DNA from: Sneathiella sp. | GTDB taxonomy: Bacteria; Pseudomonadota; Alphaproteobacteria; Sneathiellales; Sneathiellaceae | Reading direction: 5' to 3' | Length of the DNA: 64,000 nucleotides | Assembly: GCF_036844445.1 (NCBI RefSeq) | Contig: NZ_DAIUFV010000001.1 | Location: forward strand, 244,727 to 308,726 | In this document: positions 17,999 to 39,337 of the stretch, piece after piece | Layout: each line of letters begins with the position of its first letter | How positions within the stretch are numbered: the first letter of the stretch is position 1 | Translations under genes and position numbers: made by a program | Notes under the pieces: model-generated | Database searches by the model: none | Seen by the model: the letters and a program-made list of their open reading frames with translations, nothing else | What the model was told of the DNA's origin: nothing

Positions 17999-18058
17999 AC
18001 CCCGCATCGGACCGCCGCCCGAGCCGCGGCGGTCCGGCTGGTGGCGAAAGGAGCTTAC

Positions 18059-19860: not shown

Positions 19861-19886
19861 GACCGGGTTGCGGTGATGCTGATATA

Positions 19887-22340
19887 ATGGAATTTAATTG
19901 CAATAACTGTTCAACAAGGGGTTTTCCGGTGACAGACAATCGAAGGCGCAAGGCTGAGATCCTCCGCGATCTGGAACGCAAGATCCTGTGGCTGGCTTGC
20001 TGGATGATTGATCAGGCTAACCGGCGCGACAAGGTGGACGGTGTCAAGGTAGGCGGACATCAGGCATCGTCGGCGTCGATGGTCTCGATCCTGACGGCGC
20101 TTTATTTCAGCGTCCTCCGGCCCGAGGACAGGATTGCCGCAAAACCGCATGCCTCGCCCGTCTTTCATGCCATCCAATATCTGATGGGCAATCAGACCCG
20201 AGAGAAGCTGGAGAATTTCCGGGGGTACGGCGGCGCGCAGTCTTATCCCAGCCGTACCAAGGATGTCGATGACGTGGATTTCTCGACGGGGTCCGTCGGC
20301 CTTGGCGTCGCCATCACCGCTTTCTCCTCCATCATACAGGACTATATCCGCACCCGGAAATGGGCGGCGGACCGGCTCGAGGGGCGGATGATTGCGCTTG
20401 TCGGCGATGCGGAGCTGGACGAGGGCAATGTCTATGAGTGCTTGCAGGAAGGCTGGAAGCATGATCTTCGCAACACCTGGTGGGTGATCGACTATAACCG
20501 GCAGAGCCTTGACGGCGTTGTCCGCGAGGGGCTTTACGACCGGATCGAGACGGTTTTCAAGGCATTCGGCTGGGACGTCATCACGCTGAAATACGGCGCC
20601 TTGCAGCGCGCCGCGTTCGAGGAGCCGGGCGGCGAAACCCTGCGCCGCTGGATCGACGCCTGCCCGAACCAGCTTTACTCGGCGCTCTGCTATCAGGGCG
20701 GCGCGGCATGGCGCAAGCGGCTGATGGACGAGATCGGCGATCAGGGACCGGTGACGGCGCTGCTTGAGCGGCGCTCCGATGACGAGCTGGCGGAGCTGAT
20801 GGCCAATCTTGGCGGGCACTGCCTGCCGACCCTGATCGATACTTTCAACAGCATCCGGCACGACCGCCCCGTCGCCTTCATCGCCTATACCATCAAAGGC
20901 TGGGGCACGCCGCTCGCCGGACATAAGGACAATCACGCCGGCCTGATGACCGAGGCGCAGATGGAGGACTTCCGCAGACGGATGAAGGTCCGCGACGGAT
21001 ATGAGTGGGAGCCCTTTGAGGGGCTTGCCTCGAGCGAGACCGAGCTCCGCGATTTTCTTCGCAAGGTGCCGTTCTTTGCCAAAGGCCGCCGCCGCTATTC
21101 GGCGCCGCGAATCAGCATCCCGGAGGGCGTGATCACGAACCCCTCGCCTCAGGGGACGGTCAATTCGACGCAAGCGGCGTTTGGCAAAATCCTCGATGAT
21201 ATCGCCAAGTCGAAGACGGATTTCGCCGATCGCATCGTGACGACATCGCCCGATGTGACGGTTTCCACCAACCTCGGGCCGTGGGTCAACCGGCGTCATC
21301 TCTTCGCCCCGCGCGAAGTGCCGGATATCTTCCGTGACGAGCGCATCCCGAGCGCGCAGAAATGGCAGTTCATGCCCGACGGGCAGCATATCGAGCTTGG
21401 CATCGCGGAGATGAATCTCTTCCTGATGCTGGCCGCGGCCGGGCTCTCGCATTCGCTGTTCGGCGAGCGGCTGCTGCCTGTCGGGACGCTTTACGATCCC
21501 TTCATCTCGCGCGGTCTCGATGCCCTCAACTACGCCTGCTATCAGGATGCGCGCTTCCTGCTGGTGGCGACACCGTCCGGTGTCTCGCTCGCGCCGGAAG
21601 GCGGGGCGCATCAGTCGATCGCGACGCCCCTGATCGGTATGTCGCAGGACGGCCTTGCGAGCTTCGAGCCGGCCTTTACGGACGAGCTGGCCATCATCAT
21701 GAACTGGGCCTTTGACTATATGCAGCGCGACGGGGAAGGGGATCCGTCCGAGAAGACATGGCTCCGCGATGAGACGGGCGGCTCAGTCTATTTGCGCTTG
21801 TCGACACGCCAGATCGAACAGCCGGCGCGAAAAATCAATCCGAACTTCGCCGAGGAGGTGATCAACGGCGCGACCTGGCTGAAGGAGCCCGGCCCGAACG
21901 CCGAACTCATCATCGCCTATCAGGGGACGGTGGCGACGGAAGCCATCAAGGCGGCCGGGATGCTGGGCGGCATGCGCCGCGATATCGGAGTGCTCTCGAT
22001 CACCTCGGCCGACCGCCTCAACGCCGGCTGGCAGGCGGCGCAGCGCGCCCGGGCGCGCGGGCAGGCGGGCGCCCTGAGCCAGATCGAGCGCATGCTCGCG
22101 CTGCTGCCCCGGCACTGCCATATTATCACGGTGATCGACGGCTTCCCGGCGACCCTCTCCTGGCTTGGCGGCGTTGCAGGGCATCCGACGGTCAGCCTTG
22201 GCGTCGAGCATTTCGGCCAGACCGGTACCGTTGCCGATCTTTATCGCCACTATGGGATCGATGCGGAAAGCATCACCGAAATCGCCGTCAATCTGACGAG
22301 CGGGCGGCGGTTTGCGGCACCGAAACTCGTTGCGACCTGA
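19887..22340 (+). CDS. Homodimeric (AceE-type) 2-oxoacid dehydrogenase E1 component / transketolase-like ThDP enzyme, N-terminally short
   Basis: GGHQASSASMVSILTALYF, GSVGLGVA and GDAELDEGNVYE...IDYNRQSLDG (ThDP motif) run collinear with AceE. The start is uncertain: ATG 19887, or GTG 19929 preceded by aagggg. The ORF-track start at 19674 overlaps dctM. Confidence 0.8.
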   Translation: MEFNCNNCSTRGFPVTDNRRRKAEILRDLERKILWLACWMIDQANRRDKVDGVKVGGHQASSASMVSILTALYFSVLRPEDRIAAKPHASPVFHAIQYLMGNQTREKLENFRGYGGAQSYPSRTKDVDDVDFSTGSVGLGVAITAFSSIIQDYIRTRKWAADRLEGRMIALVGDAELDEGNVYECLQEGWKHDLRNTWWVIDYNRQSLDGVVREGLYDRIETVFKAFGWDVITLKYGALQRAAFEEPGGETLRRWIDACPNQLYSALCYQGGAAWRKRLMDEIGDQGPVTALLERRSDDELAELMANLGGHCLPTLIDTFNSIRHDRPVAFIAYTIKGWGTPLAGHKDNHAGLMTEAQMEDFRRRMKVRDGYEWEPFEGLASSETELRDFLRKVPFFAKGRRRYSAPRISIPEGVITNPSPQGTVNSTQAAFGKILDDIAKSKTDFADRIVTTSPDVTVSTNLGPWVNRRHLFAPREVPDIFRDERIPSAQKWQFMPDGQHIELGIAEMNLFLMLAAAGLSHSLFGERLLPVGTLYDPFISRGLDALNYACYQDARFLLVATPSGVSLAPEGGAHQSIATPLIGMSQDGLASFEPAFTDELAIIMNWAFDYMQRDGEGDPSEKTWLRDETGGSVYLRLSTRQIEQPARKINPNFAEEVINGATWLKEPGPNAELIIAYQGTVATEAIKAAGMLGGMRRDIGVLSITSADRLNAGWQAAQRARARGQAGALSQIERMLALLPRHCHIITVIDGFPATLSWLGGVAGHPTVSLGVEHFGQTGTVADLYRHYGIDAESITEIAVNLTSGRRFAAPKLVAT

Positions 22341-25777: not shown

Positions 25778-26530
25778 TCAGAAAGCTTGCCAGAAGAAAA
25801 TCGCGCTCATAGTGAAACCGATCAGGGCGATAATGGCGCGGATCACCGGGCGCGGCAGGGCGCGGGCAATGGGTGCGCCCGCATAGCCGCCGATAAGTGC
25901 GGCAATCATCATCAGGATCGCCTGATACCAGAGCACAAGGCCGCCGACCGCGAAAATCGCGACGGAAATGGTCGAGAGAATAAATGACAGCCCGTTTTTC
26001 AGGCCGTTCATCTGATGCAGGTCGGTCATCCCCCAAAGCGCAAACACCGCGAGCAGGACAATGCCGAGCCCGCCGTTGAAATAGCCGCCATAGATGCAGG
26101 AAACAAAGAGGGTGATGACAGGCAGCGCCCGGCCCGACCCGGCGTAACGGGCGGCGAATTGGCTGAGCTCCTTGCCATAGAGGAAGATGAGCGTCGCGCC
26201 GAGGAGCAGAAAGGGCACGATCAGCGAAAACGCCTCGTTGGAGGAGATGAGCAGCAAGAGCGAGCCGACAGCGCCTCCGGCCAGCGTGATGGCGGTATAG
26301 AGCAGCAGGGTTCGCCGCGGAAAGCGGCCGATCTCTTTTCGGAAGCCGAAGGTGCCGCCGAGATAGCCCGGAAAGACGGCAACCGCGCTCGTCGCGTTGG
26401 CGACGACAGGCGGAATCCCTGTAAAGACAAGGGCGGGAAAGGTGAGGAAGGTTCCCCCGCCCGCGATCGTATTCAGAACTCCGGCGCCAAAGGCGGCGAG
26501 CATAATAAGCACTATGTCGAAAAAAGGCAT
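25778..26530 (-). CDS. TauE/SafE-family (DUF81) anion exporter membrane protein
   Basis: MPFFDIVLIMLAAFGAGVLNTIAGGGTFLTFPALVF plus repeated Gly-rich TM helices typical of TauE/SafE. Start set at ATG 26530. Confidence 0.8.
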   Translation of the reverse strand: MPFFDIVLIMLAAFGAGVLNTIAGGGTFLTFPALVFTGIPPVVANATSAVAVFPGYLGGTFGFRKEIGRFPRRTLLLYTAITLAGGAVGSLLLLISSNEAFSLIVPFLLLGATLIFLYGKELSQFAARYAGSGRALPVITLFVSCIYGGYFNGGLGIVLLAVFALWGMTDLHQMNGLKNGLSFILSTISVAIFAVGGLVLWYQAILMMIAALIGGYAGAPIARALPRPVIRAIIALIGFTMSAIFFWQAF

Positions 26531-26705
26531 TTGTTTACTTGCGGGATCCCCGAAAAGGCGGGCGACCGGCGGCGATATGGGGTTTCGGGATACCTCTGGT
26601 TTAGCCCTTTCAACCCCGCGTGTCATTGTTTCTTTTCATCTCCCGCGAACGGATGGCGGGTGTCCGAGGTACTCACACAGCAGGTCGGCGGCGGATCGGC
26701 GCCTG

Positions 26706-27731
26706 CTAGGGGCGCGGCGCGGCGGTGCTGCCGCGAACGGTCAGGGTCGCGGTCGCGATCGAGGAGTGCTGCTGATTGGTGAGCTTTCCGGAATCTATAT
26801 GATGCAGGAACCAAAGTCCACAGGTCGTGGCCAGATCCTCGATCGGCATCCAGAGGGTGGTGAGGCCCGGGCCCCACCATTTGAACTCCGGCGCATCGCC
26901 AAAGCCGACGAGCGAGAGGTCGCCGGGGACGGAGATCTGCATCTCGTGCAGCGTCTCCAGAATGGCCTGGGTGACGCGGATTGTCCCGGTGATCAGCGCC
27001 GTCGGCGGGTTGGGGCGGTTCAGGAGTTCCTTGACCGCGTTGGCGCCGTATTGGGTGATCGAGGGAGGGCCGAAAATCTCGATCGCCTCGCTGCGGTCAA
27101 CGCCCATTTCCTGAAAGGCCCGGCGAAATCCCGCCCGCCGCGCCGTTCCGGTCGAGAGCTCAAGCGAGCCGCCAATATAGGCGATGCGGCGATGCCCGAG
27201 CGAGAGCAGGTGCCGCGTGCCTTCGCAGAGGCATTCCTCGTCATTGATGCCAAACCAAGCGGAGTTGTAGCTCTCGATCCGGCGGAGCAGCTGGACGTGC
27301 GGAAAATTATTGATGAGATCACGCGTCTCGCGCTTGGGCTGCGCGGTCGGGACAATGACGATGCCGGCCGCCCGCGCGCTGATCAGCTCGGTCACGTGAC
27401 GCGCTTCGGTTTCAGGATCATTGGCGATGGAGAGCGCGAGCTGGTATCCGTTCGCGCTGCAGCAGTCCGAGAGCGCCTCGGCAATCGTGGCATAGAAATA
27501 GTTGCGGATATCGGGGAGCATCAGCCCGACGAGATTACTTTTTGCCCCCCGCATCTGCCGGGCGGGCAGGTTGCCGACATAGCCGAGCTGGCTTGCCGCC
27601 TCCTTGACACGGGTAATCGTTTTCGCGCTGATCCGCGGATCGCCCGAGAGGGCGCGCCCGACCGTCGAGACCGAAACGCCGGCGATCTCGGCAACGTCGC
27701 GCGCGGTGACCATCCTGAATGATTTTGTCAT
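26706..27731 (-). CDS. LacI-family transcriptional regulator
   Basis: HTH segment VTARDVAEIAGVSVSTVGRALSG followed by NLVGLMLPDI and a sugar-binding-like core. Start at ATG 27731 after ggaaggg; an upstream ATG at 27761 would overlap the dehydrogenase gene. Confidence 0.9.
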   Translation of the reverse strand: MTKSFRMVTARDVAEIAGVSVSTVGRALSGDPRISAKTITRVKEAASQLGYVGNLPARQMRGAKSNLVGLMLPDIRNYFYATIAEALSDCCSANGYQLALSIANDPETEARHVTELISARAAGIVIVPTAQPKRETRDLINNFPHVQLLRRIESYNSAWFGINDEECLCEGTRHLLSLGHRRIAYIGGSLELSTGTARRAGFRRAFQEMGVDRSEAIEIFGPPSITQYGANAVKELLNRPNPPTALITGTIRVTQAILETLHEMQISVPGDLSLVGFGDAPEFKWWGPGLTTLWMPIEDLATTCGLWFLHHIDSGKLTNQQHSSIATATLTVRGSTAAPRP

Positions 27732-27753
27732 ATCCCTTCCGGCTTTTGCAGCA

Positions 27754-28692
27754 TCAGACAACCCTGTTGAGCACCGGCTCGCCCGTCCGGATGCGTCGGC
27801 AGTTCTCCTCGATCACCGCAAGGCTGCGGTCAATTGTTTGCGGCGTCAACCACGCAATATGCGGCGTCATCACGACATTCGGAAATTCCTTGAGCCGCCC
27901 GGCATCACGCAGCGGCTCGGCGGCAAAAACATCGAGCCCGGCGCCCGCCAGCCGGCCGGAGGCGAGGGACGCGGCAAGCGCGGCTTCATCGACAAGTTCC
28001 CCGCGCGCGGTATTGACAAGAATGGCGCCCGGTTTCATCCGGCCAAAGGCCGCCGCATTCAGGATATGGCGCGTCTCGGGCGTCGCGGGGATATGGAGCG
28101 AGAGAATGTCGCTGGTTGCGAGAAGCTCCTCGAAGGAGACGGCTTCGGCGATCGCATCCGGCTTGGGTGTGCGGCTCCAGTACTGCAGTTTCGCGCCGAG
28201 AGCGGTGAGCGGCGCCGCGAGCCGCATCCCGACCGCCCCATAGCCGACGAGCCCGACCGTGCTGCCGCTGATCTCGCCGATCGCTTCCGCGTCGTTGGGC
28301 GACAGCTGCCAGCCCTCGCCGATGCGCGTCGCACTGTCGAATGTGGTCATGCGGCGGAGCGTCGCCAGCATCAGGGCGAGGGTGTGTTCGGCGACGGCGG
28401 CCGTGTTAGTGCCCGGCATGTTGGCGACGATCACGCCGGCCTTTTTTGCGGCGTCAAGATCGATCGTATTGACCCCGATGCCAATCTTCTGGATCAGCTT
28501 CAATTGCGGCCCTTGCGCAATCATGTCGGCACTTACCGGCTTCAGGCAATGCAAAAGCACGTCAGTGTCCGGGATCTCGCGGATGAAACCGGCTTCATCC
28601 TGCTCGTCGATCACCGTGATCTCGATATCTTCTATCGTCGCAAGTCGCTTTTTCAGCCTGTCGCTGGCGGAAAACTGCAATAAAGCCTTCAA
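27754..28692 (-). CDS. D-isomer-specific 2-hydroxyacid dehydrogenase (glyoxylate/hydroxypyruvate reductase-like)
   Basis: GLVGYGAVGMRLA (GxGxxG), ILVNTARGELVDEAAL (catalytic Arg), GAGLDVFAAEP (Glu) and VVMTPHIAW (His). TTG start overlapping the enolase stop (TTGA). Confidence 0.88.
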   Translation of the reverse strand: MKALLQFSASDRLKKRLATIEDIEITVIDEQDEAGFIREIPDTDVLLHCLKPVSADMIAQGPQLKLIQKIGIGVNTIDLDAAKKAGVIVANMPGTNTAAVAEHTLALMLATLRRMTTFDSATRIGEGWQLSPNDAEAIGEISGSTVGLVGYGAVGMRLAAPLTALGAKLQYWSRTPKPDAIAEAVSFEELLATSDILSLHIPATPETRHILNAAAFGRMKPGAILVNTARGELVDEAALAASLASGRLAGAGLDVFAAEPLRDAGRLKEFPNVVMTPHIAWLTPQTIDRSLAVIEENCRRIRTGEPVLNRVV

Positions 28693-30008
28693 CGTCTCTC
28701 TCCTCGGGCCCGCTCTGGAATTGCTGAGGCGAAGACCAGCCCCTCGCGTCCGGCAAACCGCGCACGCGATCCGAGGGCCTCTTCAATTCTCAGGCATTCG
28801 TTCCATTTTGCCATGCGTTCGGAGCGAGCGAAAGAGCCCACCTTGAATTGGCCCGCATCCCAGCCGGTGGAAAGATGCGAGATAATGACATCTTCCGTCT
28901 CGCCGGAGCGGGCGGAAACGATCGTGCCGAGCCCTGCCGCCTTGGCCGCTTCGAGCGCCTTGCGGGTCTCTGTAATCGTCCCGGCCTGGTTCGGCTTGAT
29001 AAGCACGGCGGTGAGCGCCTTGTCGGCCGCCGCCCGGGTGACACGCGCGGCGTTGGTCACGAGATAGTCATCGCCAATAATCTGGCAGGTCGCGCCATAA
29101 AGCCGCGTGAAGGTCTGAAAGCCTTTCGGATCATCCTCGCTCAACGGATCTTCGATGGAAAGGATCGGGTAGGTCTCAAGCCAGCCGCCTAGGATGGAAA
29201 TCCACTCGTCGGTTTCATATTTCTTGCCGCCGAGGGCGAGGGTGTAAAGGCCGTTCCGGCCAAATTCCGAGGCCGCCACGTCAAGCGAGATGGCAACGTC
29301 TTCGCCGGGCTTGAAGCCGGCGCGCTCGATCGCAAGAACAAGCGTATCGAGAATCTCCTCGTTCGATCCGAATGCCGGCCAATAGCCGCCTTCATCGGCG
29401 ACCCCCCGCAGGCTGCCGCGCTCCTTCATTAGCGCGCCGGCGGCGAGATAGACCTCGGCCGTCCAGTCGAGCGCCTCGGAGAAGGATGTCGCGCCCGGAC
29501 ACATGATCATGAAATCCTGGATATCGACGCGCCGCGCCGCATGCGCGCCGCCGCCGAAAATCTGGATCTCGGGGAGCGGCATGCGAATATCCCGCCCGCC
29601 CGAGAGATAGAGCCAAAGCGGCAGTTTCTCGGCCGCCGCGCGCGCCTGCAATACCGCCATGGAGGTGGCAACGATGGCGTTGCCGCCAAGCCGGGCGCGA
29701 TCGGGCGTGCCGTCGAGCCGCACCATCGCACCGTCGACCTCTTCCTGGTGATCGGCGTCAAGGCCGATCAGGCAGGCGCTGATCTCCTCATTCACGGCGG
29801 CCACGGCGCGGCGCACATCAAGGCCGCCAAAGGCCTTGCCGCCGTCGCGCAAATCAACCGCTTCGCCGCTTCCCATCGACGCGCCGGCGGGCGCGATGGC
29901 CCGGCCCGTCGCGCCGCAGCCAAGGCGCACGTCCACCTCGACCGTCGGTCGCCCGCGCGAATCCCACACCCGCCGTCCAAAAACAGATTTGATTGTTGTG
30001 TCAGTCAT
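28689..30008 (-). CDS. Enolase-family protein (true phosphopyruvate hydratase family), divergent paralog
   Basis: Collinear with enolase: DSRGRPTVEVDV, PAGASMGSGEAVDLRDG, VADEGGYWP, SLDVAASEF, SIEDPL, IGDDYLVTN, LIKPNQAG, SARSGETED, GQFKVG and ECLRIEEALG. It reads IQDFMI and SARSGETED where canonical enolases read QEFMI and SHRSGETED. Confidence 0.85.
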   Translation of the reverse strand: MTDTTIKSVFGRRVWDSRGRPTVEVDVRLGCGATGRAIAPAGASMGSGEAVDLRDGGKAFGGLDVRRAVAAVNEEISACLIGLDADHQEEVDGAMVRLDGTPDRARLGGNAIVATSMAVLQARAAAEKLPLWLYLSGGRDIRMPLPEIQIFGGGAHAARRVDIQDFMIMCPGATSFSEALDWTAEVYLAAGALMKERGSLRGVADEGGYWPAFGSNEEILDTLVLAIERAGFKPGEDVAISLDVAASEFGRNGLYTLALGGKKYETDEWISILGGWLETYPILSIEDPLSEDDPKGFQTFTRLYGATCQIIGDDYLVTNAARVTRAAADKALTAVLIKPNQAGTITETRKALEAAKAAGLGTIVSARSGETEDVIISHLSTGWDAGQFKVGSFARSERMAKWNECLRIEEALGSRARFAGREGLVFASAIPERARGERR

Positions 30009-31002
30009 TTGCTAGGTTCCTTGCCCACACATCACGCAGTTCCGCCAGTCGGGTCGGAGGCGACTCGACAAAGGGCAGGGCCGTCATTCTGATTTTTTCT
30101 TTATCAATTTCATTGGTAATGTACTCAACCGGTGATTTTCCATCAACGCGTGCGAGAAACAAAGCCGGCAGCAGGCGCGCAACACGCGCCTCGAGCGCGT
30201 CCCGAGACTCCCATCCGACTTCATTGAAATAGGCGTCTTTCAAGGCGTCAAAGGCGCGGAGCAGGACGTCCCGCGCGCCCGGCATATGCACGCATTTGAG
30301 AAGCAGGTGATTGAGGCAGAAGGCAAGATCAAAGGCCGGCTCCCCGTACCAGGCGCATTCCGCATCGAGAAAGACAGGGCCCTCGCGGCCCATCAGGATA
30401 TTCTTCGGGCTCACGTCGCCGTGGACAAGCACGGTTTCCGCGCCAAGCGTCGCTTCGGCAAGGCAGAGAAGGCGCTCTGCAACCGCGCCATGCACGCGCG
30501 CGGTTGCTTTCAGGTAAGGCTCGATCCGCAGGGCATCGAATGTTTCGGGTACCCTGAATTTATCGGCGAGGCGGGGCGAGTGCGCGGTTGCCTGATGGAT
30601 GGCGCCGAGGCTTGCGCCCACCTTGGCCGCGAAGGCGATATCGACATCGCCGTCCATAAGCTGTGTTTTCCATGTCGGATAGTCGAGAAATTCCATGGCG
30701 AAGAGGGCGGATGCGGGCTCGGAATAGAGAATATCCGGAACGGCCTCGGGGCGGATTTCGCGAACTTCGCGGATCCAGTTCACTTCATTGGCGTTGCGAG
30801 AGAGTGGCGCCTCCCAATGCTGCGAGACGCGAAGCTCCGCAAGCGCCCGCTTGAGCACAAAACGGCGCGCGCCTGCGTCAATTCTCCAGATGTCCGAAGA
30901 AATGCCGCCGGTCAGCCGCTCGGCGCGGATGGCGGAGATATTCTCCGCCAGTCCGCTCCGTTTGAGAAACTCGCCCGTCTCCTGGTCAAGCATCGGTGTC
31001 AC
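30001..31002 (-). CDS. APH-fold small-molecule kinase (aminoglycoside phosphotransferase / methylthioribose kinase-like)
   Basis: LTGGISSDIWRI nucleotide-loop region, the Brenner motif HGDVSPKNIL, and FLDAECAWYGEPAFDLAFCLNHLLLK, which resembles the MtnK IDxEFAFYGPxGFDxG segment. 8-nt overlap (ATGACTGA) with the enolase-like gene. Confidence 0.8.
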   Translation of the reverse strand: MTPMLDQETGEFLKRSGLAENISAIRAERLTGGISSDIWRIDAGARRFVLKRALAELRVSQHWEAPLSRNANEVNWIREVREIRPEAVPDILYSEPASALFAMEFLDYPTWKTQLMDGDVDIAFAAKVGASLGAIHQATAHSPRLADKFRVPETFDALRIEPYLKATARVHGAVAERLLCLAEATLGAETVLVHGDVSPKNILMGREGPVFLDAECAWYGEPAFDLAFCLNHLLLKCVHMPGARDVLLRAFDALKDAYFNEVGWESRDALEARVARLLPALFLARVDGKSPVEYITNEIDKEKIRMTALPFVESPPTRLAELRDVWARNLAND

Positions 31003-31014
31003 AGGTTACTCCTC

Positions 31015-32358
31015 TCAGAACATCGTGCCGGGCAGCAGCAATGAGATGATCGGGAAAGCGATCAGCAGATAGAGTACTACCAGATCGGACATGATGAACA
31101 ATATACAGCCCTTAAAGATCTGGTTGAGCGGCACCGCGTCACCGACGACCGATTTGATAACAAACACGTTGATCCCGACGGGCGGCGTCATTAGGCCGAC
31201 CTCAATCAGCTTGACGATGATGATCCCGAACCAGATCAGGTCATAGCCGAGGGTTTCAATGATCGGAACCGCCAGCGGCAGCGTCAGCAGCAGAATGCCG
31301 ATGGCGTCAAGGAACGTGCCGAGGATCAGATACATGGCGCAGATCATGAACAGCACCAGCGCGGGCGAGAAGTTCTGTGCGTTTGTCCAGGCGACCAGAT
31401 CACTGGCAATCCCGGTGATGCCGACGAAAGAGACCATTAGCTTTGCGCCGATGGCAAGGACGAAGATGATCGCGCACTGGAAGGTCGTTTCACGAACTGC
31501 GTCCCAGAAGCCCTCCCACGTCAGCCGCTTCAGCAGGAAGCCGATGACGATCGTGACGCCCGCCGCGACTGCCGCCGATTCCGTCGCGGTCAGAATGCCG
31601 GTGTAGACGCCGCCGATGACGATGATGGCGATCAGCGTGATCGGCCAGATGCGGAGCAGCGCCTGAAGCTGTTCGCGGCCTGTTGCCGTGATATGGTTCT
31701 CCGGTGCCGCCTCGGGCCGTGCTTTCACCCAGACCAGAACAATGATGACATAGCCGACGACACTGATCAGGCCGGGAAGAATGCCGGCGACGAACAGCTT
31801 GCCGATCGACTGCTCGGTGAAGACACCGTAGAGCACCAGCACGAGGGAGGGCGGGATCAGTGAGCCAAGCGTGCCGCCGGCCGCAACCGATGCCGTGGCG
31901 AGCGATTTGCTGTAACCGAAGCGCAGCATTTCGGGAACCGCGATGCGGCCCATCGCCGAGGCGCAGGCCATGCTGGAGCCGGTGATCGACGAGAAGCCGG
32001 CGCAGCCGACGACCGAGGCAATCGCGAGACCGCCCGGCAGGCGCGGCAGCAGAATACGGATGGTATAGAAGAGATCTGTCGTGAACCTTGCCTTATGCGC
32101 GACATGGCCAAGCACGATAAAGAGCGGCACCATGGTGAAGGTGTAGGTCTTGATAAAGGAGAAGGGGTCGGTGCCAAGAAACGCCTGCACGGGCCGCATC
32201 GCGCGCGCCGGGTTGAAAGCCCCGCCCGGCGGCCAGGCGAAGATGATAAACATGCCGATGATGGAAACGGCGCAAAGCGCAAATGCAATCGGCACACGCA
32301 AAAACAGGAGGATCAGCAGGCCCGCGAGCACAGCAATCGCAAGGGTAGTCGGGTCCAT
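31015..32358 (-). CDS. TRAP transporter large permease (DctM family)
   Basis: 447-aa polytopic protein with SSITGSSMACASAMG, LIPPSL, GILPGLI and MTPPVGINVF segments. Confidence 0.9.
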   Translation of the reverse strand: MDPTTLAIAVLAGLLILLFLRVPIAFALCAVSIIGMFIIFAWPPGGAFNPARAMRPVQAFLGTDPFSFIKTYTFTMVPLFIVLGHVAHKARFTTDLFYTIRILLPRLPGGLAIASVVGCAGFSSITGSSMACASAMGRIAVPEMLRFGYSKSLATASVAAGGTLGSLIPPSLVLVLYGVFTEQSIGKLFVAGILPGLISVVGYVIIVLVWVKARPEAAPENHITATGREQLQALLRIWPITLIAIIVIGGVYTGILTATESAAVAAGVTIVIGFLLKRLTWEGFWDAVRETTFQCAIIFVLAIGAKLMVSFVGITGIASDLVAWTNAQNFSPALVLFMICAMYLILGTFLDAIGILLLTLPLAVPIIETLGYDLIWFGIIIVKLIEVGLMTPPVGINVFVIKSVVGDAVPLNQIFKGCILFIMSDLVVLYLLIAFPIISLLLPGTMF

Positions 32359-32392
32359 TGTTACAGTTACCTTTCTGGGACGGGTTTCGCGG

Positions 32393-32953
32393 TTACGAAA
32401 GCAGGTCTTGGGCGGCGTCTGGATAGACGATGCGCTTTTTCAGGTTCAGATCTTCCAGCAGGTTCAGCAGCAGCCGGATGCAGAACAGGGCAACCGCAAT
32501 CACGAAAACAAGTTTCGCCGGCCACACCGGAAGATACAGCTCGCCTTCGTAATACTGACCGCTGTTCCAGTCCTTGACGACGCCGAGCCAGACACACCAG
32601 AGAATGGTGGAGAAAATGACTAGGGCGATTAGATGCGCGAGCGCGCTGAGCGCCTGAAAATATTTCTTCGGCAGCCAGGCGGTGAAGACCTCAACCTCGA
32701 TATGCGCGCGCCTTGCCGTCGCATAGGCGAAGGGAAGGGCGATTATGATGGGCATCAGGTTTTCCGCGAGCACCACATCGTCAGGGATAGGAAGATGAAA
32801 AAACGTTCTGCCCGCGACGGAAAGGCAAATCAGGGCGAGCAGGAGGACGGTCGTCAGCATCGAGATTTTGAGAAACACCGTCTCGATGCTGCCGATGACG
32901 CGTTCGACGAGAGAAACTCCCGTCGAACCGTCGTCAAGCTTGAGGCGAACCAT
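32393..32953 (-). CDS. TRAP transporter small permease (DctQ family)
   Basis: 186-aa four-TM protein between the SBP and DctM genes. Its start overlaps the SBP stop (TGATG). Confidence 0.85.
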   Translation of the reverse strand: MVRLKLDDGSTGVSLVERVIGSIETVFLKISMLTTVLLLALICLSVAGRTFFHLPIPDDVVLAENLMPIIIALPFAYATARRAHIEVEVFTAWLPKKYFQALSALAHLIALVIFSTILWCVWLGVVKDWNSGQYYEGELYLPVWPAKLVFVIAVALFCIRLLLNLLEDLNLKKRIVYPDAAQDLLS

Positions 32954-34062
32954 CAGCTTTTGCCTTTATCCCACGGATAGCCGTTCTTGTTGAAATCGGC
33001 CTGATACTTATCGATCAGTTGCTGATAGTGATCCGCAACTTCGCGGGCGGGGAGGCCCTTTTTGGAGACGTTGGCAATCCACTCCTCGGCGAGGATCGCA
33101 CCATATTTCTTGACCTCGTCTAGCATGCCGGGCGGCGGAGGCGAGTAGATGACGCCAAATTCGCCGCCGGGGGCGGAAAGCTCGGCTTTGGCTTCAACAA
33201 CGCGGATGAGATGATCTTCAACGATATGGGCGTTCAGGTCGTTGGCGACCTCGCGGATCACCTTTTTGCGCTCGTCGCTGAGCTCATCCCAGAAATCCTT
33301 GTTCATGATGATGCCGTAGGCCATGACCAGCCCGAAGTCGATCTCGATCACATGCTTGGCGATTTCATACTGCCGGTAGCCCTTGATGGCGAGGTGATAG
33401 ATCTGGTTGCAATCGACAAGGCCGGTCTGCAATGCCTGATAGACTTCGGTCTGCGGCATGGCGATGGTCGTCGCGCCCATGTTCTTCAAGACTTCGGTGT
33501 AGGGGCCGCCCGTCCGGATCTTGAGGTTTTTCAGCTCGTCGAGGGAATTGATTGGCGCCTTGCAGATGAGCTGGACGTTCCCGGCATTGAAGTTGGCGAT
33601 ATATTCGATGTTGTTGCGCGCGAACTGCTTCTTCACATCCTCGTTGGTGGTGGCGAGTTCATAGATCGCCTGCTGCGCGACCCAGAGGTTCGACGGGCCG
33701 ATCAGCAGGTTACCAACCTCGTAAAGATCGAGAACGCCGGGGGTGTAGGAGGAAACGATCGATCCCATGTCGGCGAGGCCGGCGCCGACGATGCGCGGGA
33801 TATCGGCGGGTGCGCCAAGCGAGCCGCCCCAGTGAATGTCGAAGATGATGTCGCCGCCCGAGCGGCTTTCGATCTGTTCCTTAAACCACATGATATTGTC
33901 GCCCATGCCGCCGCGGTTGGCGCCGAAATGCGCGTAGCGGATCGAGATGGGGTCAGCGTTTGCGCTAAGAGGCGCTGCCACAACGGCTGTCACGGCGGCG
34001 ACTATGCCCGCGATGAGGCGTGTCGAGCGTCGTAACGGTTTCCAGAATGCTTTGATTTTCAT
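32953..34062 (-). CDS. TRAP transporter substrate-binding protein (DctP family)
   Basis: Signal peptide STRLIAGIVAAVTAVVAAPLSANA, then ISIRYAHFGA...FKEQIESRSGGDI, a DctP-like body. Confidence 0.85.
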   Translation of the reverse strand: MKIKAFWKPLRRSTRLIAGIVAAVTAVVAAPLSANADPISIRYAHFGANRGGMGDNIMWFKEQIESRSGGDIIFDIHWGGSLGAPADIPRIVGAGLADMGSIVSSYTPGVLDLYEVGNLLIGPSNLWVAQQAIYELATTNEDVKKQFARNNIEYIANFNAGNVQLICKAPINSLDELKNLKIRTGGPYTEVLKNMGATTIAMPQTEVYQALQTGLVDCNQIYHLAIKGYRQYEIAKHVIEIDFGLVMAYGIIMNKDFWDELSDERKKVIREVANDLNAHIVEDHLIRVVEAKAELSAPGGEFGVIYSPPPPGMLDEVKKYGAILAEEWIANVSKKGLPAREVADHYQQLIDKYQADFNKNGYPWDKGKS

Positions 34063-34100: not shown

Positions 34101-34120
34101 TTATGCAATTGATAGCATAA
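34101..34120. promoter_or_regulatory. Inverted repeat TTATGC-N8-GCATAA in the 5' region of the minus-strand TRAP/kinase/enolase operon
   Basis: 6-bp perfect arms in an AT-rich stretch about 40 nt upstream of the dctP start. Candidate binding site for the LacI regulator at the operon end. Confidence 0.3.
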
Positions 34121-34182: not shown

Positions 34183-34218
34183 TTGACAGGAAAGGGGGTG
34201 GATTGCATAAAAATGCAA
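34183..34218 (+). promoter_or_regulatory. Candidate sigma70-type promoter with overlapping operator for the FAH operon
   Basis: TTGACA (34183-34188), 17-nt spacer, CATAAA (34206-34211). The inverted repeat TTGCAT-AAAA-ATGCAA (34203-34218) overlaps the -10 element. Confidence 0.35.
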
Positions 34219-34260
34219 ACGAAAGCATTACAATAACAGAATAAAATCGGGAGTATCGTT

Positions 34261-35175
34261 ATGACGTCACCAACGCGGTATGGGCTTTGCACGATCCAGA
34301 CGGACGCCGGGGCCACGCCGGCAATTGCGGTGGGGGGGAAACACTGGGAATTGGCGAAGGTCGCGCCGGAAATTAGACTTCCAGACGGGCTTATGAGCCT
34401 CTTCCCGGACTGGCAGGCGAGCGAGTCGGCACTTGCGAAGGTCGCCGATGCCATCGCCGCCGGCAAACATGGCGAGGGATTTGCTGTTGCCGATGACAAG
34501 TTCCTGCCGCCGCTGATGTATCCCGGAAAAGTCGTCTGCGCAGGCACTAACTATATTGATCATATCCATGCCGTCGGCCGCACCAGCTTCAGCAAGGAAG
34601 AGAATATCCCCGCAATGTTCATGAAGCCGCCGAAATCGGCGCTCGTCGGTGGGGGGCGGACAGCCCGCATTCCCACCAACTGCACGATGTATGACTGGGA
34701 GATCGAGCTCGGCGTCGTCATGGGCAAGCGCATCGATGTCGGAACGCCGGTCAGCCGCGATTTGAACGAGATTGCCGGCTATATGCTGACGCTCGATATG
34801 TCGGCGCGCGATTTCCAGCGCAACCCCAAGCATTTCGCGAAATCCGATCTTTTCATGGGCAAGGCGTTCGACACGAGCTGCCCTTCTGGTCCCTATTTCG
34901 TGCCGGCGAAATTCATCCCCGATCCGCAAGATCTCGATATGAAACTCTGGCGGAATGACAAGGTTGAACAGGATTCCAACACGAAGAACATGATCTGGTC
35001 GGTCTATGAGCTGTTGCAGGCGCTAACCGAGAATGTGACGATGGAGCCGGGAGATCTGTTCCTGACCGGAACGCCTGCCGGCACCGGGATCGAGACCGGC
35101 ACCTACGCGAGCCGCGGCGACAGGATCGAGGCGGAAATCGAGCATCTTGGCCGTCTCAGGATCGAACTCTACTAA
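34261..35175 (+). CDS. Fumarylacetoacetate hydrolase (FAH) family protein
   Basis: KVVCAGTNYIDH, FMKPPKSAL, YDWEIELGVVMGK (metal-binding Glu pair) and LTGTPAGTG. Confidence 0.88.
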   Translation: MTSPTRYGLCTIQTDAGATPAIAVGGKHWELAKVAPEIRLPDGLMSLFPDWQASESALAKVADAIAAGKHGEGFAVADDKFLPPLMYPGKVVCAGTNYIDHIHAVGRTSFSKEENIPAMFMKPPKSALVGGGRTARIPTNCTMYDWEIELGVVMGKRIDVGTPVSRDLNEIAGYMLTLDMSARDFQRNPKHFAKSDLFMGKAFDTSCPSGPYFVPAKFIPDPQDLDMKLWRNDKVEQDSNTKNMIWSVYELLQALTENVTMEPGDLFLTGTPAGTGIETGTYASRGDRIEAEIEHLGRLRIELY

Positions 35176-35205: not shown

Positions 35206-36024
35206 ATGTTGACACAGGCAAAGGGCTGGGGCCCGGACGGCAAGCGCGCCGCCATCAGTATCACCTTTGACAACATGGGGGAGGCGTCGGAGCTGGAGCG
35301 CGGCCAGCCCCCCGTCATGGGGCCGAGCGGGAAGCATTCCTCGCTCGAAATTCTGCCCGATCTTCTCCGCATCCTCGACGGATCGAAAATCACCTATTTC
35401 GTCGAGGGGCTGAACTGCGAGATGTACCCGGATGTGATCCGGAGCGTTCAGGCGGCCGGCCATGAGATCGGCGTGCATGGCTGGCGGCATGAAAACTGGG
35501 GCACGACGGACGCGGCGCGGCGCGAGGATGCGCTCAAGCGCTCCGTCGCCGCCTTCCGAAGCCTCGGCGTTGACGTCAGGGGCTTCCGCCCGCCCGGCGG
35601 GAAAGTCGATGCGGCGGAGCTTCGCAAGGAGTGCCTCGCGGTCGGCCTCAACTTCGCCTCGCCGCTTGGCGATATCGGCGATGATACGAAGGACGCAGGC
35701 TTCACCTCTCTCCCGTTCGCGTGGCAGCATGTCGATGCCTATATGCTGCATCCCGGGCTGGGCGCGCTCCGTCAGATGTTCGGCGACCCCGAAGAGCCGA
35801 TCTCCTATGACGAGTGGGGCGGTGTTGTTGACGAGCTGATCCGGAAAGTCAAACGCGAAGGCGGCCACGCAACGCTTATTTTCCACCCCTCCATGCTGGT
35901 CCAGAGCGAGAGAGCCGTTGAGATATTTGCGCAATTCGTGAAAACTGTGCGCGAGGATGCGGACATCTGGGCGCCGACCTGCAGCGAACTTGTCGGCTGG
36001 CTATCTGAAAACGGGCATAGCTGA
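35206..36024 (+). CDS. Polysaccharide deacetylase (NodB-homology, CE4-like) family protein
   Basis: AISITFDNMGE (NodB motif 1, reading TFDN rather than TFDD) and GHEIGVHGWRHENW (HxxxH motif 2). Confidence 0.75.
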   Translation: MLTQAKGWGPDGKRAAISITFDNMGEASELERGQPPVMGPSGKHSSLEILPDLLRILDGSKITYFVEGLNCEMYPDVIRSVQAAGHEIGVHGWRHENWGTTDAARREDALKRSVAAFRSLGVDVRGFRPPGGKVDAAELRKECLAVGLNFASPLGDIGDDTKDAGFTSLPFAWQHVDAYMLHPGLGALRQMFGDPEEPISYDEWGGVVDELIRKVKREGGHATLIFHPSMLVQSERAVEIFAQFVKTVREDADIWAPTCSELVGWLSENGHS

Positions 36025-36160
36025 GCGTCACTTTCGGATCGCTTTCTGCGACCCGGCGTCGTATCCTGCGGGGCGCGGCGCCGGGTTTGTGCATTTTGAC
36101 CTCCACCCGGTCCCTCCGCGCGATGCAAAAAGCAAGAATAAGAATAGCAGGAGTTTTATC

Positions 36161-37714
36161 ATGACCGCTTCGCAGCCCTTGGCGTTGTCACAAGGTATTG
36201 TCATCAACGATCGTTTCACCTCCTTTCCCGATTTGGAGGAGCGCGTGAAGCGCCTCGCGGGCGGGCTTGCCGCGCTCGGCATCAAAGCCGGAGATTCGGT
36301 CGCGATCCTGCTTCGCAACGATACGCCCTTTCTTGAAGTCACCTACGGGGCGATGCTGCTCGGCGCGTATGCCGTGCCGATCAACTGGCATTTCCGCACC
36401 GATGAAGTGCTCTACATCCTTGAAGATTGCGGCGCGAAAGTGCTGGTCGCCCATAGTGACCTTCTGATGGGGCTGGACGCCGATCTGCCGACCGGGATCA
36501 CGGTGATCGAGGTTGATACCGCGGAAGATATCGTGGCGCGCGAGGTGACGATGGCGCGGCGGCGTGCACTGGAGCCGGCGACCCTTGACTATGCGGTCTG
36601 GGTTGACGCGCAAACGCCGTATGCCGGTCCGCCAAGCCCGCCGCCGCAAAGCATGATCTACACCTCCGGCACGACGGGACGGCCGAAAGGCGTCCGCCGC
36701 GATGTGCCGACGCCAGAACAGGTCGCAGCGGTCGCCCGTATGCGCTCGGAGCTTTACGGACTGACGCCCGGGCTTCGCGCCATGCTGGCGGGGCCGATGT
36801 ATCACTCGGCGCCGAACGCCTTTGCGGTGCGCGCCGGGCAGATTGCCGAGCTTTTCGTCATTGAGCCCTATTTCGATCCGGAGCGTTTCCTGCAGGTTGT
36901 GGAGGCGCACCGGATCGATACGACCTTCATGGTGCCGACAATGTTCATCCGGCTGCTCCGCCTTCCCGAAGAGGTGCGCGCGCGGTATGACGTCTCGTCG
37001 CTTCGCCATGTGGTGCACGCCGGATCACCCTGTCCTGTCGACGTCAAGAAGGCGATGATCGACTGGCTGGGCCCGATCATCTGCGAATATTACGGCGGGA
37101 CGGAGTCGGGGGCGGTGACCTTTATCACCAGCCCGGAATCGCTGCGCAAGCCCGGCTCGGTCGGGAAGGCCTTCGGCAATACGATCCTTCGCATCTATGA
37201 TGATGCGGGCAATGTGCTGCCGGCCGGCGAGATTGGCCATATCTATATGCGGATGCTGGATAATCCCGATTTCACCTATCACAACGCGCCGGAGAAACGG
37301 GACGAGATCGGCCGCGACGAGCTGATCACCTGCGGCGACATGGGCTATCTTGATGAGGATGGCTATCTTTATATCTCTGATCGCAAGAACGACATGGTCA
37401 TCTCGGGCGGCGTCAATATCTATCCCGCCGAAATCGAGTCAGTGCTGATCCAGCTTCCGGGCGTCAAGGATTGCGCTGTCTTCGGCATTCCGCATCCCGA
37501 ATTCGGTGAAAGCCTGATTGCGTTTGTCGAGCCGTTGGACGGGATGGAGCTGGATATTGCGGCGCTGCGTCAGCAGATGGCGGAGAAGCTGGCGGGGTAT
37601 AAAATCCCGCGGCAGATCGAAATCCGCCACGACCTGCCGCGCGAGGACAGCGGCAAGATCTTCAAGAAACATCTCCGCGCGCCCTATTGGGAGGGGGCGG
37701 GGCGGACGATCTGA
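36161..37714 (+). CDS. AMP-dependent acyl-CoA synthetase/ligase
   Basis: MIYTSGTTGRPKGV, YYGGTESG, ITCGDMGYLDEDGYLYISDRKNDMVISGG and GKIFKKHLR. ATG 36161 follows a gcaggag RBS. The ORF-track start at 35957 overlaps the preceding gene. Confidence 0.92.
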   Translation: MTASQPLALSQGIVINDRFTSFPDLEERVKRLAGGLAALGIKAGDSVAILLRNDTPFLEVTYGAMLLGAYAVPINWHFRTDEVLYILEDCGAKVLVAHSDLLMGLDADLPTGITVIEVDTAEDIVAREVTMARRRALEPATLDYAVWVDAQTPYAGPPSPPPQSMIYTSGTTGRPKGVRRDVPTPEQVAAVARMRSELYGLTPGLRAMLAGPMYHSAPNAFAVRAGQIAELFVIEPYFDPERFLQVVEAHRIDTTFMVPTMFIRLLRLPEEVRARYDVSSLRHVVHAGSPCPVDVKKAMIDWLGPIICEYYGGTESGAVTFITSPESLRKPGSVGKAFGNTILRIYDDAGNVLPAGEIGHIYMRMLDNPDFTYHNAPEKRDEIGRDELITCGDMGYLDEDGYLYISDRKNDMVISGGVNIYPAEIESVLIQLPGVKDCAVFGIPHPEFGESLIAFVEPLDGMELDIAALRQQMAEKLAGYKIPRQIEIRHDLPREDSGKIFKKHLRAPYWEGAGRTI

Positions 37715-37791: not shown

Positions 37792-38991
37792 TTACTTTTT
37801 CGCCTGAAGCGTGATCTTATTCTCCAGCAGGCTGTCGATTTCCGCCTGGCTGAAGCCGGCTTCGCGGAGGATGTCGACGCTTTCCTGACCGAGATGCGGG
37901 GGCACCTTGCGGATCGAGGATGGCGTTTCGGAGAAGCGGATCGGCGGATCCATCATGCGAAGCGTTCCCTCCGTCGGATGTTCCACCAGTTTCCAGAAGC
38001 CGGAGGCGTTGAGCTGCTCGTCATTGAGCAGCATTTCCTTCGACATAACGGTCTGGACGGGGATATTCTTCTCATCGAGGATCTCCTGCCACTCGGCGCA
38101 GGAGCGGGTCGCGATGATGTCGGCAAGGGTGCCATAGACCTCTTCCGAATGGGTGATCCGGGCCGCAAAGGTCTTGAAAATCGGATCTTCCTTCAGCTCT
38201 GGCCGGCCAGCGATATCGAAGAGATCAAACCAGTTGCGATCGGTATAGGGCAGCACGGCAAGATAGCCGTCGGTCGTTTTGTAGGGCTTGCGCATGGTAT
38301 TGAGCAACCGCTCATAACCCATCTGGGCGATCGGCGGTTCAAACGCGGCGCCGTAGAGATGCTCGACCATGACGAAATCGACGAGCGCTTCAAACATCGG
38401 AACTTCAATCGCCTGTCCCTTGCCGCCGCGCTCGCGGTTGACGAGGGCGGCAAGAACCGCCATCACGAGGTTATAGGAGGAGGTCTTGTCAGCCATGATC
38501 GTCGGCACGTAGCGCGGCTGGTCCGAGGCGATGGTCATGAGATCGGTAACGCCCGACGCGGCCTGGATAATATCGTCATAGGCCGGCTTGTCGGCGAGCG
38601 GTCCCTCGGCGCGAAAGCCATAGGCGGCGCAGTAAATGAGGTTCGGGAAGCGGTCCTTGAAATTCTCATAGCCAAGGCCGAGCTTGCTGCAAACTTTCGG
38701 CCGCAGGTTATGGACGAACACGTCGGCCGTTTCGATCACCCGAAACAGCGCTTCTTTCCCCTCCGGCTTCGTCAGGTCGAGAACGATGCTGCGCTTGTTG
38801 CGGTTAGTCGCGAGAAAAAGCGAGCCCATGTTGGGATTGCGTTTCGGGCCGGACTGCCGCGTCGTATCGCCCTGCGGCGTTTCCACCTTGATGATATCGG
38901 CGCCCATATCGCCAAGGATCTGGGTTGCCCATGGACCCATAATGACCGTCGTCAATTCCACCACGCGAATGCCGTCTAACGTGCCTGCCAT
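37792..38991 (-). CDS. Class III CoA-transferase (CaiB/BaiF/Frc family)
   Basis: GIRVVELTTVIMGPWATQILGDMGADIIKVETP N-terminal signature. 399 aa. Confidence 0.9.
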   Translation of the reverse strand: MAGTLDGIRVVELTTVIMGPWATQILGDMGADIIKVETPQGDTTRQSGPKRNPNMGSLFLATNRNKRSIVLDLTKPEGKEALFRVIETADVFVHNLRPKVCSKLGLGYENFKDRFPNLIYCAAYGFRAEGPLADKPAYDDIIQAASGVTDLMTIASDQPRYVPTIMADKTSSYNLVMAVLAALVNRERGGKGQAIEVPMFEALVDFVMVEHLYGAAFEPPIAQMGYERLLNTMRKPYKTTDGYLAVLPYTDRNWFDLFDIAGRPELKEDPIFKTFAARITHSEEVYGTLADIIATRSCAEWQEILDEKNIPVQTVMSKEMLLNDEQLNASGFWKLVEHPTEGTLRMMDPPIRFSETPSSIRKVPPHLGQESVDILREAGFSQAEIDSLLENKITLQAKK

Positions 38992-39012
38992 TTTTATTTC
39001 CTGTTCATTAGG

Positions 39013-39318
39013 TTACTTAGAGATCATTGCCGTCGCGGCGGCGCTGAAGTTGTCAATTCGTCCGCCGTCTGAAAATTTTCCGCCAAGAAGCCGAGTGGAT
39101 TCCGGAGCGGCATTGATTACGAGCGTTGCATTTTTATCCTTGTTTTTAACTATCGCTCTTTCGTTCTTAACGCCCGGGCGACGCCGTCCTGCCAACCGGT
39201 GCAAGGCGCAGCGGTCGCTCACCTTGCCGGATATTTCGCGGCGTCGTCCCATGCTAACTGTGTAGCGGATCAAAACGGGACTTTCAACTTTATCGAGGAC
39301 GGCGGGATGAAAATTCAT
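39013..39318 (-). CDS. Hypothetical small protein (101 aa), compositionally atypical
   Basis: Open frame filling the gap between the ACAD and CoA-transferase genes on the same strand. No recognisable motif. By eye, third-position GC is lower than in the neighbouring genes. Confidence 0.3.
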   Translation of the reverse strand: MNFHPAVLDKVESPVLIRYTVSMGRRREISGKVSDRCALHRLAGRRRPGVKNERAIVKNKDKNATLVINAAPESTRLLGGKFSDGGRIDNFSAAATAMISK

Positions 39319-39337
39319 CGTGCGGCAATCCGACCCC

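Follow-up and report, generated by a model that had tools for sequence, protein, structure and literature searches.

An enolase homolog of Sneathiella with replaced C3-side residues, its partner kinase and a predicted LacI regulon shared across phyla

Sneathiella sp. (assembly GCF_036844445.1) carries a gene with the appearance of an enolase inside a long operon, and the question raised by this locus is whether the gene product is a second glycolytic enolase or an enzyme acting on another phosphorylated acid. The gene lies in a 64 000 nucleotide (nt) stretch of contig NZ_DAIUFV010000001.1 (positions 244,727 to 308,726), here called the window, to which all coordinates refer unless another locus is named. 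An earlier note, written from the sequence by eye, took the product, which we call ENO2, for an enolase paralog with metal and phosphate ligands retained and with substitutions at two residues facing the C3 hydroxyl of the substrate. The features at issue are the following.

28689-30008, minus strand: gene of the variant enolase ENO2, 439 amino acids (aa), enolase fold, with Asp165 and Ala366
29514-29516, minus strand: codon GAT of Asp165, replacing the invariant Glu of QEFMI (yeast E168)
28911-28913, minus strand: codon GCC of Ala366, replacing the invariant His of SHRSGETED (yeast H373)

We mapped active-site residues by HMMER alignments to the solved enolases 4mks, 4rop and 4yws. At both sites the alignment was free of gaps, with QDFMIM opposite QEFMIM and SARSGETED opposite SHRSGETED, and the claimed E168D and H373A replacements are thus borne out without any mis-registration. 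We take the Glu of QEFMI and the His of SHRSGETED to be yeast Glu168 and His373, a numbering assumed here rather than read from a printed yeast alignment. In canonical enolase these two residues, partners of Glu211, complete the site for the C3 hydroxyl and water; ENO2 has Asp165 and Ala366 in place of this diagnostic pair. Every residue that the note had listed as conserved was found in ENO2, the equivalents being (yeast first) S39=S44, H159=H156, E211=E206, D246=D243, E295=E286, D320=D313, K345=K338, R374/S375=R367/S368 and K396=K389. The Mg2+ ligands D246, E295 and D320 and the binders of the second metal and phosphate (S39, H159, R374 and S375) are invariant in the clade described below, as are the base Lys345 (K338), the acid Glu211 (E206) and Lys396 (K389). 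In the M. tuberculosis enolase the substitution E163A, at the E168 equivalent, abolished activity, and E163 and E204 were assigned to the water/C3 step (PMC10619443).

By family ENO2 is an enolase. It matched the Pfam domains Enolase_N (149 bits) and Enolase_C (282 bits) over their full lengths and scored 462 bits with NCBIfam TIGR01060 (cut-off 300); its identity to the solved enolases is 41-48%, and to canonical enolase ~44%. MR_MLE_C gave a weak partial match (37.9 bits), below that of Enolase_C. We considered an acid-sugar dehydratase of the MR/MLE type and rejected it: ENO2 has Enolase_N as its N-terminal domain and retains the phosphate binders of an enolase. An AlphaFold2 (AF2) model built from an alignment of 50 homologs had a mean predicted local distance difference test score (pLDDT) of 89 and superposed on the M. 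tuberculosis and E. coli enolases with template modelling (TM) scores of 0.91-0.94; this model was used instead of the one from the single sequence, for which pLDDT was 35. Within the model pLDDT was low at residues 204-208 (the ADEGG acid loop) and at 41-50 and 151-160 (two lid loops), segments that bear several of the clade-specific substitutions. Homologs of ENO2 are named 'phosphopyruvate hydratase' in public records.

The term 'paralog' proved apt, as a canonical enolase was detected on another contig of the same genome with 677 bits, against 462 bits for ENO2. The same holds widely: 55 of 58 genomes with a variant also carry a canonical enolase, with scores of 640-700 bits as compared with 457-503 bits for the variants, and the three genomes where none was detected are metagenome-assembled genomes. 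With respect to true enolase orthologs ENO2 falls short by ~200 bits. Within Sneathiella, the variant was present in only 4 of 25 genomes, a patchiness which indicates an accessory trait. By score, by position in a separate clade and by patchy presence, ENO2 does not behave as an ortholog of the housekeeping enolase, and the conclusion that it is not the housekeeping copy is supported. Since housekeeping orthology fails together with the two active-site features, we filed ENO2 as a member of a variant branch and not under EC 4.2.1.11.

The Asp/Ala pair is not a peculiarity of one gene. It was present (as QDF and SARSGE) in 119 of the 120 closest database proteins, and a scan of species-representative genomes gave at least 586 matched stretches, from which 80 loci were kept; all 80 had the pair. 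In an alignment of 85 variant copies and 27 canonical enolases of their host genomes, Asp/Ala occurred in 85 of 85 and in 0 of 27, respectively, and at 25 positions the two groups differed while each was at least 90% conserved. Apart from the pair, the changes that are invariant in the clade and fall on residues invariant among the canonical enolases are N16R, S36A, N155G, G209A, A215W, D385H and T397V; Y/L also replaces L/F after the DD metal motif. Several of the clade-specific changes adjoin catalytic residues. In a maximum-likelihood tree a single branch parted variant from canonical enolases, with a value of 100 in the Shimodaira-Hasegawa-like approximate likelihood ratio test (SH-aLRT). 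With a kinase gene recurring in 72 of the 80 loci (see below), the D168/A373 proteins make one clade with conserved neighbours, a grouping that the earlier note had left to be checked.

This view was extended by an HMMER search run exhaustively over 1.84 billion cluster representatives. We classified the nearest 137 full-length representatives (of 50%-identity clusters): 77 had Glu/His, and 40 had Asp with either Ala or Gly. These 40 also had N155S/G and T397V/I, and nearly all kept the ten core residues. Two subtypes were seen, that of the window with Gly155, Ala209, Trp215 and His385, and a second one (type-2) with Ser155 and without Trp215. Against the pattern of the whole branch, E168D and H373A/G with N155S/G and T397V/I/L and the core kept, ENO2 reads D, A, G, V. 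What had been proposed from two residues, an enolate, Mg2+ and phosphate machinery retained behind a remodelled C3 side, stood, with the C3-side residues swapped throughout the clade, while the further step of the note to a different and possibly bulkier substrate stays a hypothesis; the two-residue signature itself was too narrow, the fuller one comprising N155S/G and T397V/I across the variant branch and A215W, G209A and D385H in the subtype of the window. The sequence comparisons support the conclusion that residues on the C3, or leaving-group, side were replaced in a clade-wide and selected manner.

The most constant companion of the variant enolase is a kinase.

30001-31002, minus strand: APH/MtnK-like small-molecule kinase, 333 aa, Pfam APH 61.7 bits

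The stop of the kinase gene and the start of the enolase gene overlap by 8 nt, ATGACTGA. The nearest solved relatives of the kinase are methylthioribose (MTR) kinases; in the test for MtnK (TIGR01767) it scored 55.5 bits against a cut-off of 275, and our assignment stops at the APH family in general. In 60 orthologs the catalytic loop LVHGDxSPKNIL and the metal motif DAE were invariant, because of which the kinase looks active; RxDGKSPxEY is an invariant motif specific to this family. Among the 80 loci the kinase gene was found in 72: in 49 it immediately precedes the variant enolase gene, and in 23 it has another position in the locus. Three of three distant type-2 variants had an APH gene as neighbour. 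Two proteins, P0130 (770 aa) and P0186 (745 aa), are fusions of an N-terminal kinase with a C-terminal variant enolase. Another protein, P0121 (595 aa), joins the enolase to no more than the C-terminal half of a kinase, perhaps because the gene call is truncated.

These observations support the view that ENO2 is locked to a kinase of its own. We asked whether the pair could supply a glycerate kinase that its hosts lack, and this was ruled out, as a classical glycerate kinase was present in all 26 genomes tested (MOFRL type in 21, GlxK type in the other five). Given the non-housekeeping status of ENO2, the retained machinery and the lock to the kinase, its substrate is more probably the product of that kinase than the 2-phosphoglycerate (2-PG) of glycolysis.

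Seven genes follow one another on the minus strand in the order DctP, DctQ, DctM, kinase, ENO2, D-2-hydroxyacid dehydrogenase and LacI, with overlaps at the kinase/enolase, enolase/dehydrogenase and dehydrogenase/LacI junctions; a second group of genes diverges from dctP.

26706-27761, minus strand: LacI-family repressor, last gene of the operon, 8-nt overlap with the dehydrogenase gene
27754-28692, minus strand: D-isomer-specific 2-hydroxyacid dehydrogenase, 312 aa, TTG start overlapping the enolase stop (TTGA)
31015-34062, minus strand: tripartite ATP-independent periplasmic (TRAP) transporter, with DctP at 32953-34062, DctQ at 32393-32953 and DctM at 31015-32358
34104-34117, no strand assigned: LacI-type operator-like palindrome TGCAATTGATAGCA, in the dctP/FAH intergenic region
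34212-34229, no strand assigned: LacI-type operator-like palindrome AATGCTTTCGTTTGCATT (sequence as on the minus strand), in the same region
34261-35175, plus strand: fumarylacetoacetate-hydrolase (FAH)-family enzyme, acylpyruvase / 2,4-diketo-acid hydrolase type, transcribed away from dctP
35206-36024, plus strand: polysaccharide-deacetylase-family (CE4-like) hydrolase, downstream of the FAH gene
35957-37714, plus strand: AMP-forming acyl-CoA synthetase, open reading frame overlapping the CE4 hydrolase gene by 68 nt

The nearest solved relatives of the dehydrogenase are short phosphoglycerate dehydrogenases and glycerate/glyoxylate reductases, and an ortholog or paralog of it was seen in ~35 of the 80 loci. 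The FAH gene, present in 27 of the 80, has its best NCBIfam and PDB matches in 2,4-didehydro-3-deoxy-L-rhamnonate hydrolase and FAHD1, and Pfam FAA_hydrolase was assigned on its homologs. LacI orthologs with 47-81% identity were found in 21 loci, those of Streptomyces included. The TRAP arrangement is repeated in Sneathiella chinensis (L003) and Oceanicola (L113); the nearest solved relatives of its binding protein scored 60-100 bits and have varied ligands, so no ligand was called from it. The CE4-like family recurs in the equivalent clusters of these two loci and in the distant type-2 locus L119. An AMP-binding gene is also found in the Oceanicola cluster and an acetoacetate-CoA ligase gene in L119; the true start of the acyl-CoA synthetase of the window is probably further downstream, because the family match begins at residue 79.

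The 198-nt spacer between dctP and the FAH gene holds both palindromes, and nowhere else in the 64 kb was the motif matched; for the site at 34212-34229 the expected number was 0.04. Sites matching the operator consensus TGCTAACGTTAGCA are also present in the corresponding spacers of the Sneathiella chinensis and Oceanicola loci, and in 30 related loci the motif occurred one to six times per locus, as compared with 0.03 expected by chance per 17 kb. Loci with the predicted operator belong to Streptomyces, Trinickia, Ralstonia, Rhizobium and Variovorax; most Streptomyces loci had four or five copies. In locus L013, for example, sites are located at 2705, 5464, 5534, 7584 and 7698, and further sites were found in L007, L021, L029 and others. 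The operator precedes operons of several kinds: dehydrogenase-kinase-cupin, transporter, FAH, LacI, flavin mononucleotide (FMN) reductase and ENO2-dioxygenase-CMD-Zn-dehydrogenase. The LacI proteins of the phyla sharing the operator are 47-57% identical. By these predictions the ENO2 and FAH operons are linked by an operator and are parts of one multi-operon regulon common to Alphaproteobacteria, Betaproteobacteria and Streptomyces.

The constant core of this regulon consists of kinase, ENO2, dehydrogenase, FAH, transporter and LacI. Accessory members differ between habitats: in soil bacteria (Streptomyces and Burkholderiales) they are an HpaD-like extradiol dioxygenase, a CMD-family protein, a Zn-dehydrogenase, a cupin and an FMN reductase, and the marine set consists of the CE4 hydrolase and acyl-CoA ligase. 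In the Streptomyces loci L012-L037 the dioxygenase (289 bits against a cut-off of 321), the CMD-family protein and the Zn-dehydrogenase follow the enolase in one operon. In L119 the FAH, acetoacetate-CoA ligase, dehydrogenase, enolase and kinase genes stand together, with CE4 hydrolase, VOC protein and Rieske oxygenase genes beside them.

Variant enolases of different phyla have intact frames and are 63-88% identical; the Streptomyces copies share 67-69% protein identity with the proteobacterial ones. A module in Streptomyces with the same LacI and predicted operator suggests that the whole regulon was transferred between phyla. In Oceanicola sp. 22II-s10i (L113, 15969-19476) the TRAP-kinase-enolase-LacI cluster, with FAH, CE4 and dehydrogenase genes, adjoins genes of the repC/parB/parA type, and due to these neighbours it is probably located on a repABC plasmid or chromid. 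The Streptomyces copies and the copy on the Oceanicola replicon point to horizontal spread.

The best reading of these data is that kinase and ENO2, the latter as the lyase, make up a conserved two-enzyme module at the lower end of a catabolic regulon under LacI control. In this reading the kinase would produce not D-2-PG but another 2-phospho-2,3-dihydroxy acid, and ENO2 would dehydrate it to a substituted phosphoenolpyruvate (PEP). We hold this to be an even matter, belief and doubt being in balance. An acid imported through the TRAP system, or set free by the FAH-type hydrolase, would be brought by the D-2-hydroxyacid dehydrogenase to a (2R)-2,3-dihydroxy acid, and the APH-fold kinase would phosphorylate its 2-OH. 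ENO2 would then bind the 2-phospho-carboxylate through the unchanged site for two Mg2+, the Arg/Ser/His phosphate binders and Lys396; Lys345 would remove H2, the two Mg2+ and Lys396 would stabilise the enolate, and Glu211 would protonate and expel the 3-OH. The product would be an enol phosphate of the PEP type, able to return the phosphate to ADP. The replaced residues, the clade, the kinase coupling, the regulon and the non-housekeeping status come from the comparisons above; the order of these steps, the 2-OH as kinase target and the nature of the substrate are what we infer.

Rather than D-glycerate itself, the acid is most likely a relative of it with a change at C3, because the C3-side residues are replaced and the hosts already have enolase and glycerate kinase; across the deep branch, Glu168, His373, Asn155 and Thr397 gave way to smaller, less polar residues. 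As leading guesses we would name a C4 acid sugar or dicarboxylate, that is, L-threonate, D-erythronate or an isomer of tartrate. Such an acid would fit the size of the pocket change, the acid transporters and the LacI regulator, and the 2-oxo acid formed from it would suit the FAH enzyme as a substrate. Glycerates with a 3-alkyl or 3-aryl group appear less likely. A single substrate for all regulon members was also sought; ascorbate/threonate/oxalate, tartrate, hydroxylated aromatics and pyrones were weighed, and none covers all.

Several observations weigh against a substrate other than 2-PG, or against the scheme as drawn. The accessory members of the regulon, in soil and marine bacteria alike, fit no one candidate substrate. 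No positive charge was added at the C3-side positions throughout the branch, for which reason it is not obvious how a C3 carboxylate or sulfonate would be housed; N16R, which may or may not lie near C3, is common among the variants. We know of no precedent for an APH-fold kinase that phosphorylates an alpha-hydroxy acid. Finally, a dehydrogenase resembling glycerate or hydroxypyruvate reductases, a kinase and an enolase amount to a route from hydroxypyruvate to PEP, and since the three core genes match this route 2-PG stays a simple alternative.

The strongest competing explanation takes that match literally. Hydroxypyruvate, from FAH-type cleavage or another step, would be converted via D-glycerate and 2-PG to PEP; the kinase would be a new class of glycerate 2-kinase, and ENO2 a true 2-PG enolase whose substitutions tune, for example, channelling with the kinase or resistance to an inhibitory intermediate. 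The three-gene core is complete for this conversion, the relatives of the dehydrogenase include glycerate dehydrogenase, hydroxypyruvate reductase and phosphoglycerate dehydrogenase, and the residues of 2-PG chemistry are kept except for E168 and H373. Differing sets of upstream genes converge on FAH, dehydrogenase, kinase and ENO2, as would be expected of a lower pathway, and one locus is adjoined by a dehydratase of the GarD/UxaA type, whose known pathway ends in glycerate. However, canonical enolase (55 of 58 genomes) and classical glycerate kinase (26 of 26) are there already, and this explanation leaves a dedicated, remodelled enolase without a reason. Moreover, no variation is seen at E168 and H373 among canonical enolases, and the M. 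tuberculosis enzyme is inactive once its E168 equivalent is replaced (PMC10619443), whereas Asp/Ala together with N155S/G and T397V/I is fixed over a deep and diverse branch; such fixation argues for a different optimum and not for drift. We consider this explanation possible, and clearly less probable than dehydration of an acid altered at C3.

Another leaving group at C3 could also account for a changed pocket: sulfite from 2-phospho-3-sulfolactate (the reverse of the ComA reaction), phosphate, an amine or an alkoxide, with PEP as the product. The pocket would be larger at the position of the leaving group, and the dehydrogenase is nearest to enzymes whose substrate is anionic at position 3 (phosphoglycerate dehydrogenase). 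A gene 80 nt downstream of the operon seemed to point the same way.

25778-26626, minus strand: TauE/SafE-family membrane protein, 80 nt downstream of the LacI gene

TauE, however, is absent from all of the other 80 loci, that of the sister species Sneathiella chinensis included, and for that reason the sulfolactate/sulfite idea was kept as a rival of low probability only. Genes for handling sulfite, sulfonate or amines do not recur in the regulon either, and the general acid Glu211, which such good leaving groups would not need, is strictly kept. We regard departure of a group other than hydroxyl as unlikely. Less probable still is a non-catalytic, moonlighting copy with a binding or regulatory role, or a decaying duplicate: two residues important in canonical catalysis are indeed missing, but the frame is intact at 63-88% identity across phyla, the metal, phosphate and acid/base residues are all invariant, and the gene is translationally coupled, sometimes fused, to an intact kinase within a substrate-regulated catabolic operon.

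Dehydration of a C3-altered 2-phospho acid, the reading we prefer, may be compared with known systems. With canonical enolase (EC 4.2.1.11; TIGR01060; PF03952 and PF00113; E. coli Eno, M. tuberculosis Rv1023, yeast Eno1) ENO2 shares the two-domain fold and the catalytic core; it differs by E168D, H373A, N155G, T397V, G209A, A215W, S36A and D385H, by its place in a separate accessory clade, and by a gene operonic or fused with that of a kinase. With MtnK and other APH-fold kinases the partner kinase has in common the fold, the HGDxxxxN catalytic loop and the metal-binding Asp. It differs from MtnK in scoring below the cut-off, in the motif RxDGKSPxEY and in its presumed substrate, a hydroxy acid and not a sugar; no methionine-salvage genes were found near it.

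The glycerate branch of glucarate, tartrate and glyoxylate catabolism, inducible and linked to acid transporters, runs through a reductase, a 2-kinase (GarK/TtuD) and the housekeeping enolase to PEP. The core of the window has the same logical order (reductase, 2-kinase, enolase); the known branch uses kinases of the GlxK or MOFRL type and the housekeeping enolase, whereas the window has an APH-fold kinase and a dedicated variant enolase. Non-phosphorylative acid-sugar routes, such as that with L-2,4-diketo-3-deoxyrhamnonate hydrolase, likewise have a co-regulated FAH enzyme, a LacI-type regulator and acid transporters. Unlike these routes, the regulon was found to contain no dehydratase of the MR type or the IlvD/Edd type. 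If the analogy holds, kinase and ENO2 would replace the dehydratase step, a replacement not described before. Mg2+-enolate chemistry on 2-phospho(no)-carboxylates other than 2-PG is known from the enolase homolog of phosphinothricin biosynthesis, which forms carboxyphosphonoenolpyruvate, and from ComA (phosphosulfolactate synthase), which is not an enolase-family protein. Both are biosynthetic, belonging to antibiotic and coenzyme M clusters, and the locus in the window resembles neither.

A literature search found no publication on the Asp/Ala clade, on the kinase-enolase pair or on 2-phospho-tartrate, -threonate or -erythronate. The S. coelicolor protein SCO7638, with 57% identity to the housekeeping enolase SCO3096, is treated in papers as an ordinary enolase. 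We rejected it as a studied member of the clade on the basis of this 57% identity to a housekeeping enzyme, as compared with ~44% for ENO2, the SCO7638 sequence itself not having been compared; it provided no functional lead.

Two other groups of genes in the window may be mentioned. Beyond the FAH/CE4/acyl-CoA synthetase operon lie genes for a family III CoA-transferase and an acyl-CoA dehydrogenase (37792-40495, minus strand), which might process the acid released by the FAH enzyme; no operator was found near them. A second TRAP permease pair on the plus strand, DctQ (18041-18565) and DctM (18565-19860), is followed by an 888-aa thiamine diphosphate (ThDP) enzyme of the transketolase/E1-like type (whole span 18041-22340) and shows no relation to the LacI operator sites.

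Taken at its broadest, the proposal is that the Asp/Ala enolases are the first functionally distinct branch within the enolase family proper. Together with a new APH-fold class of alpha-hydroxy-acid kinases they would dehydrate an acid sugar or a related 2,3-dihydroxy acid through a 3-substituted phosphoenolpyruvate, at no net cost in ATP. In a LacI-controlled pathway that is widespread and horizontally mobile, this would take the place of the step otherwise catalysed by an Fe-S or MR-type dehydratase. This we advance tentatively, doubt somewhat outweighing belief.

Enolase proper has been treated as a family with a single function, and annotation pipelines call every member 'phosphopyruvate hydratase'. 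Should the substrate of the branch be a different one, this gene would be misannotated in hundreds of genomes (at least 586 species representatives were matched), and the module would add a new specificity to those known for kinases and a new route to metabolites of the PEP type. The conserved operator and regulon offer a direct experimental handle on inducer and substrate. In Sneathiella sp., ENO2 probably channels a compound resembling a sugar acid into central metabolism, rather than acting as the glycolytic enzyme implied by its database name.

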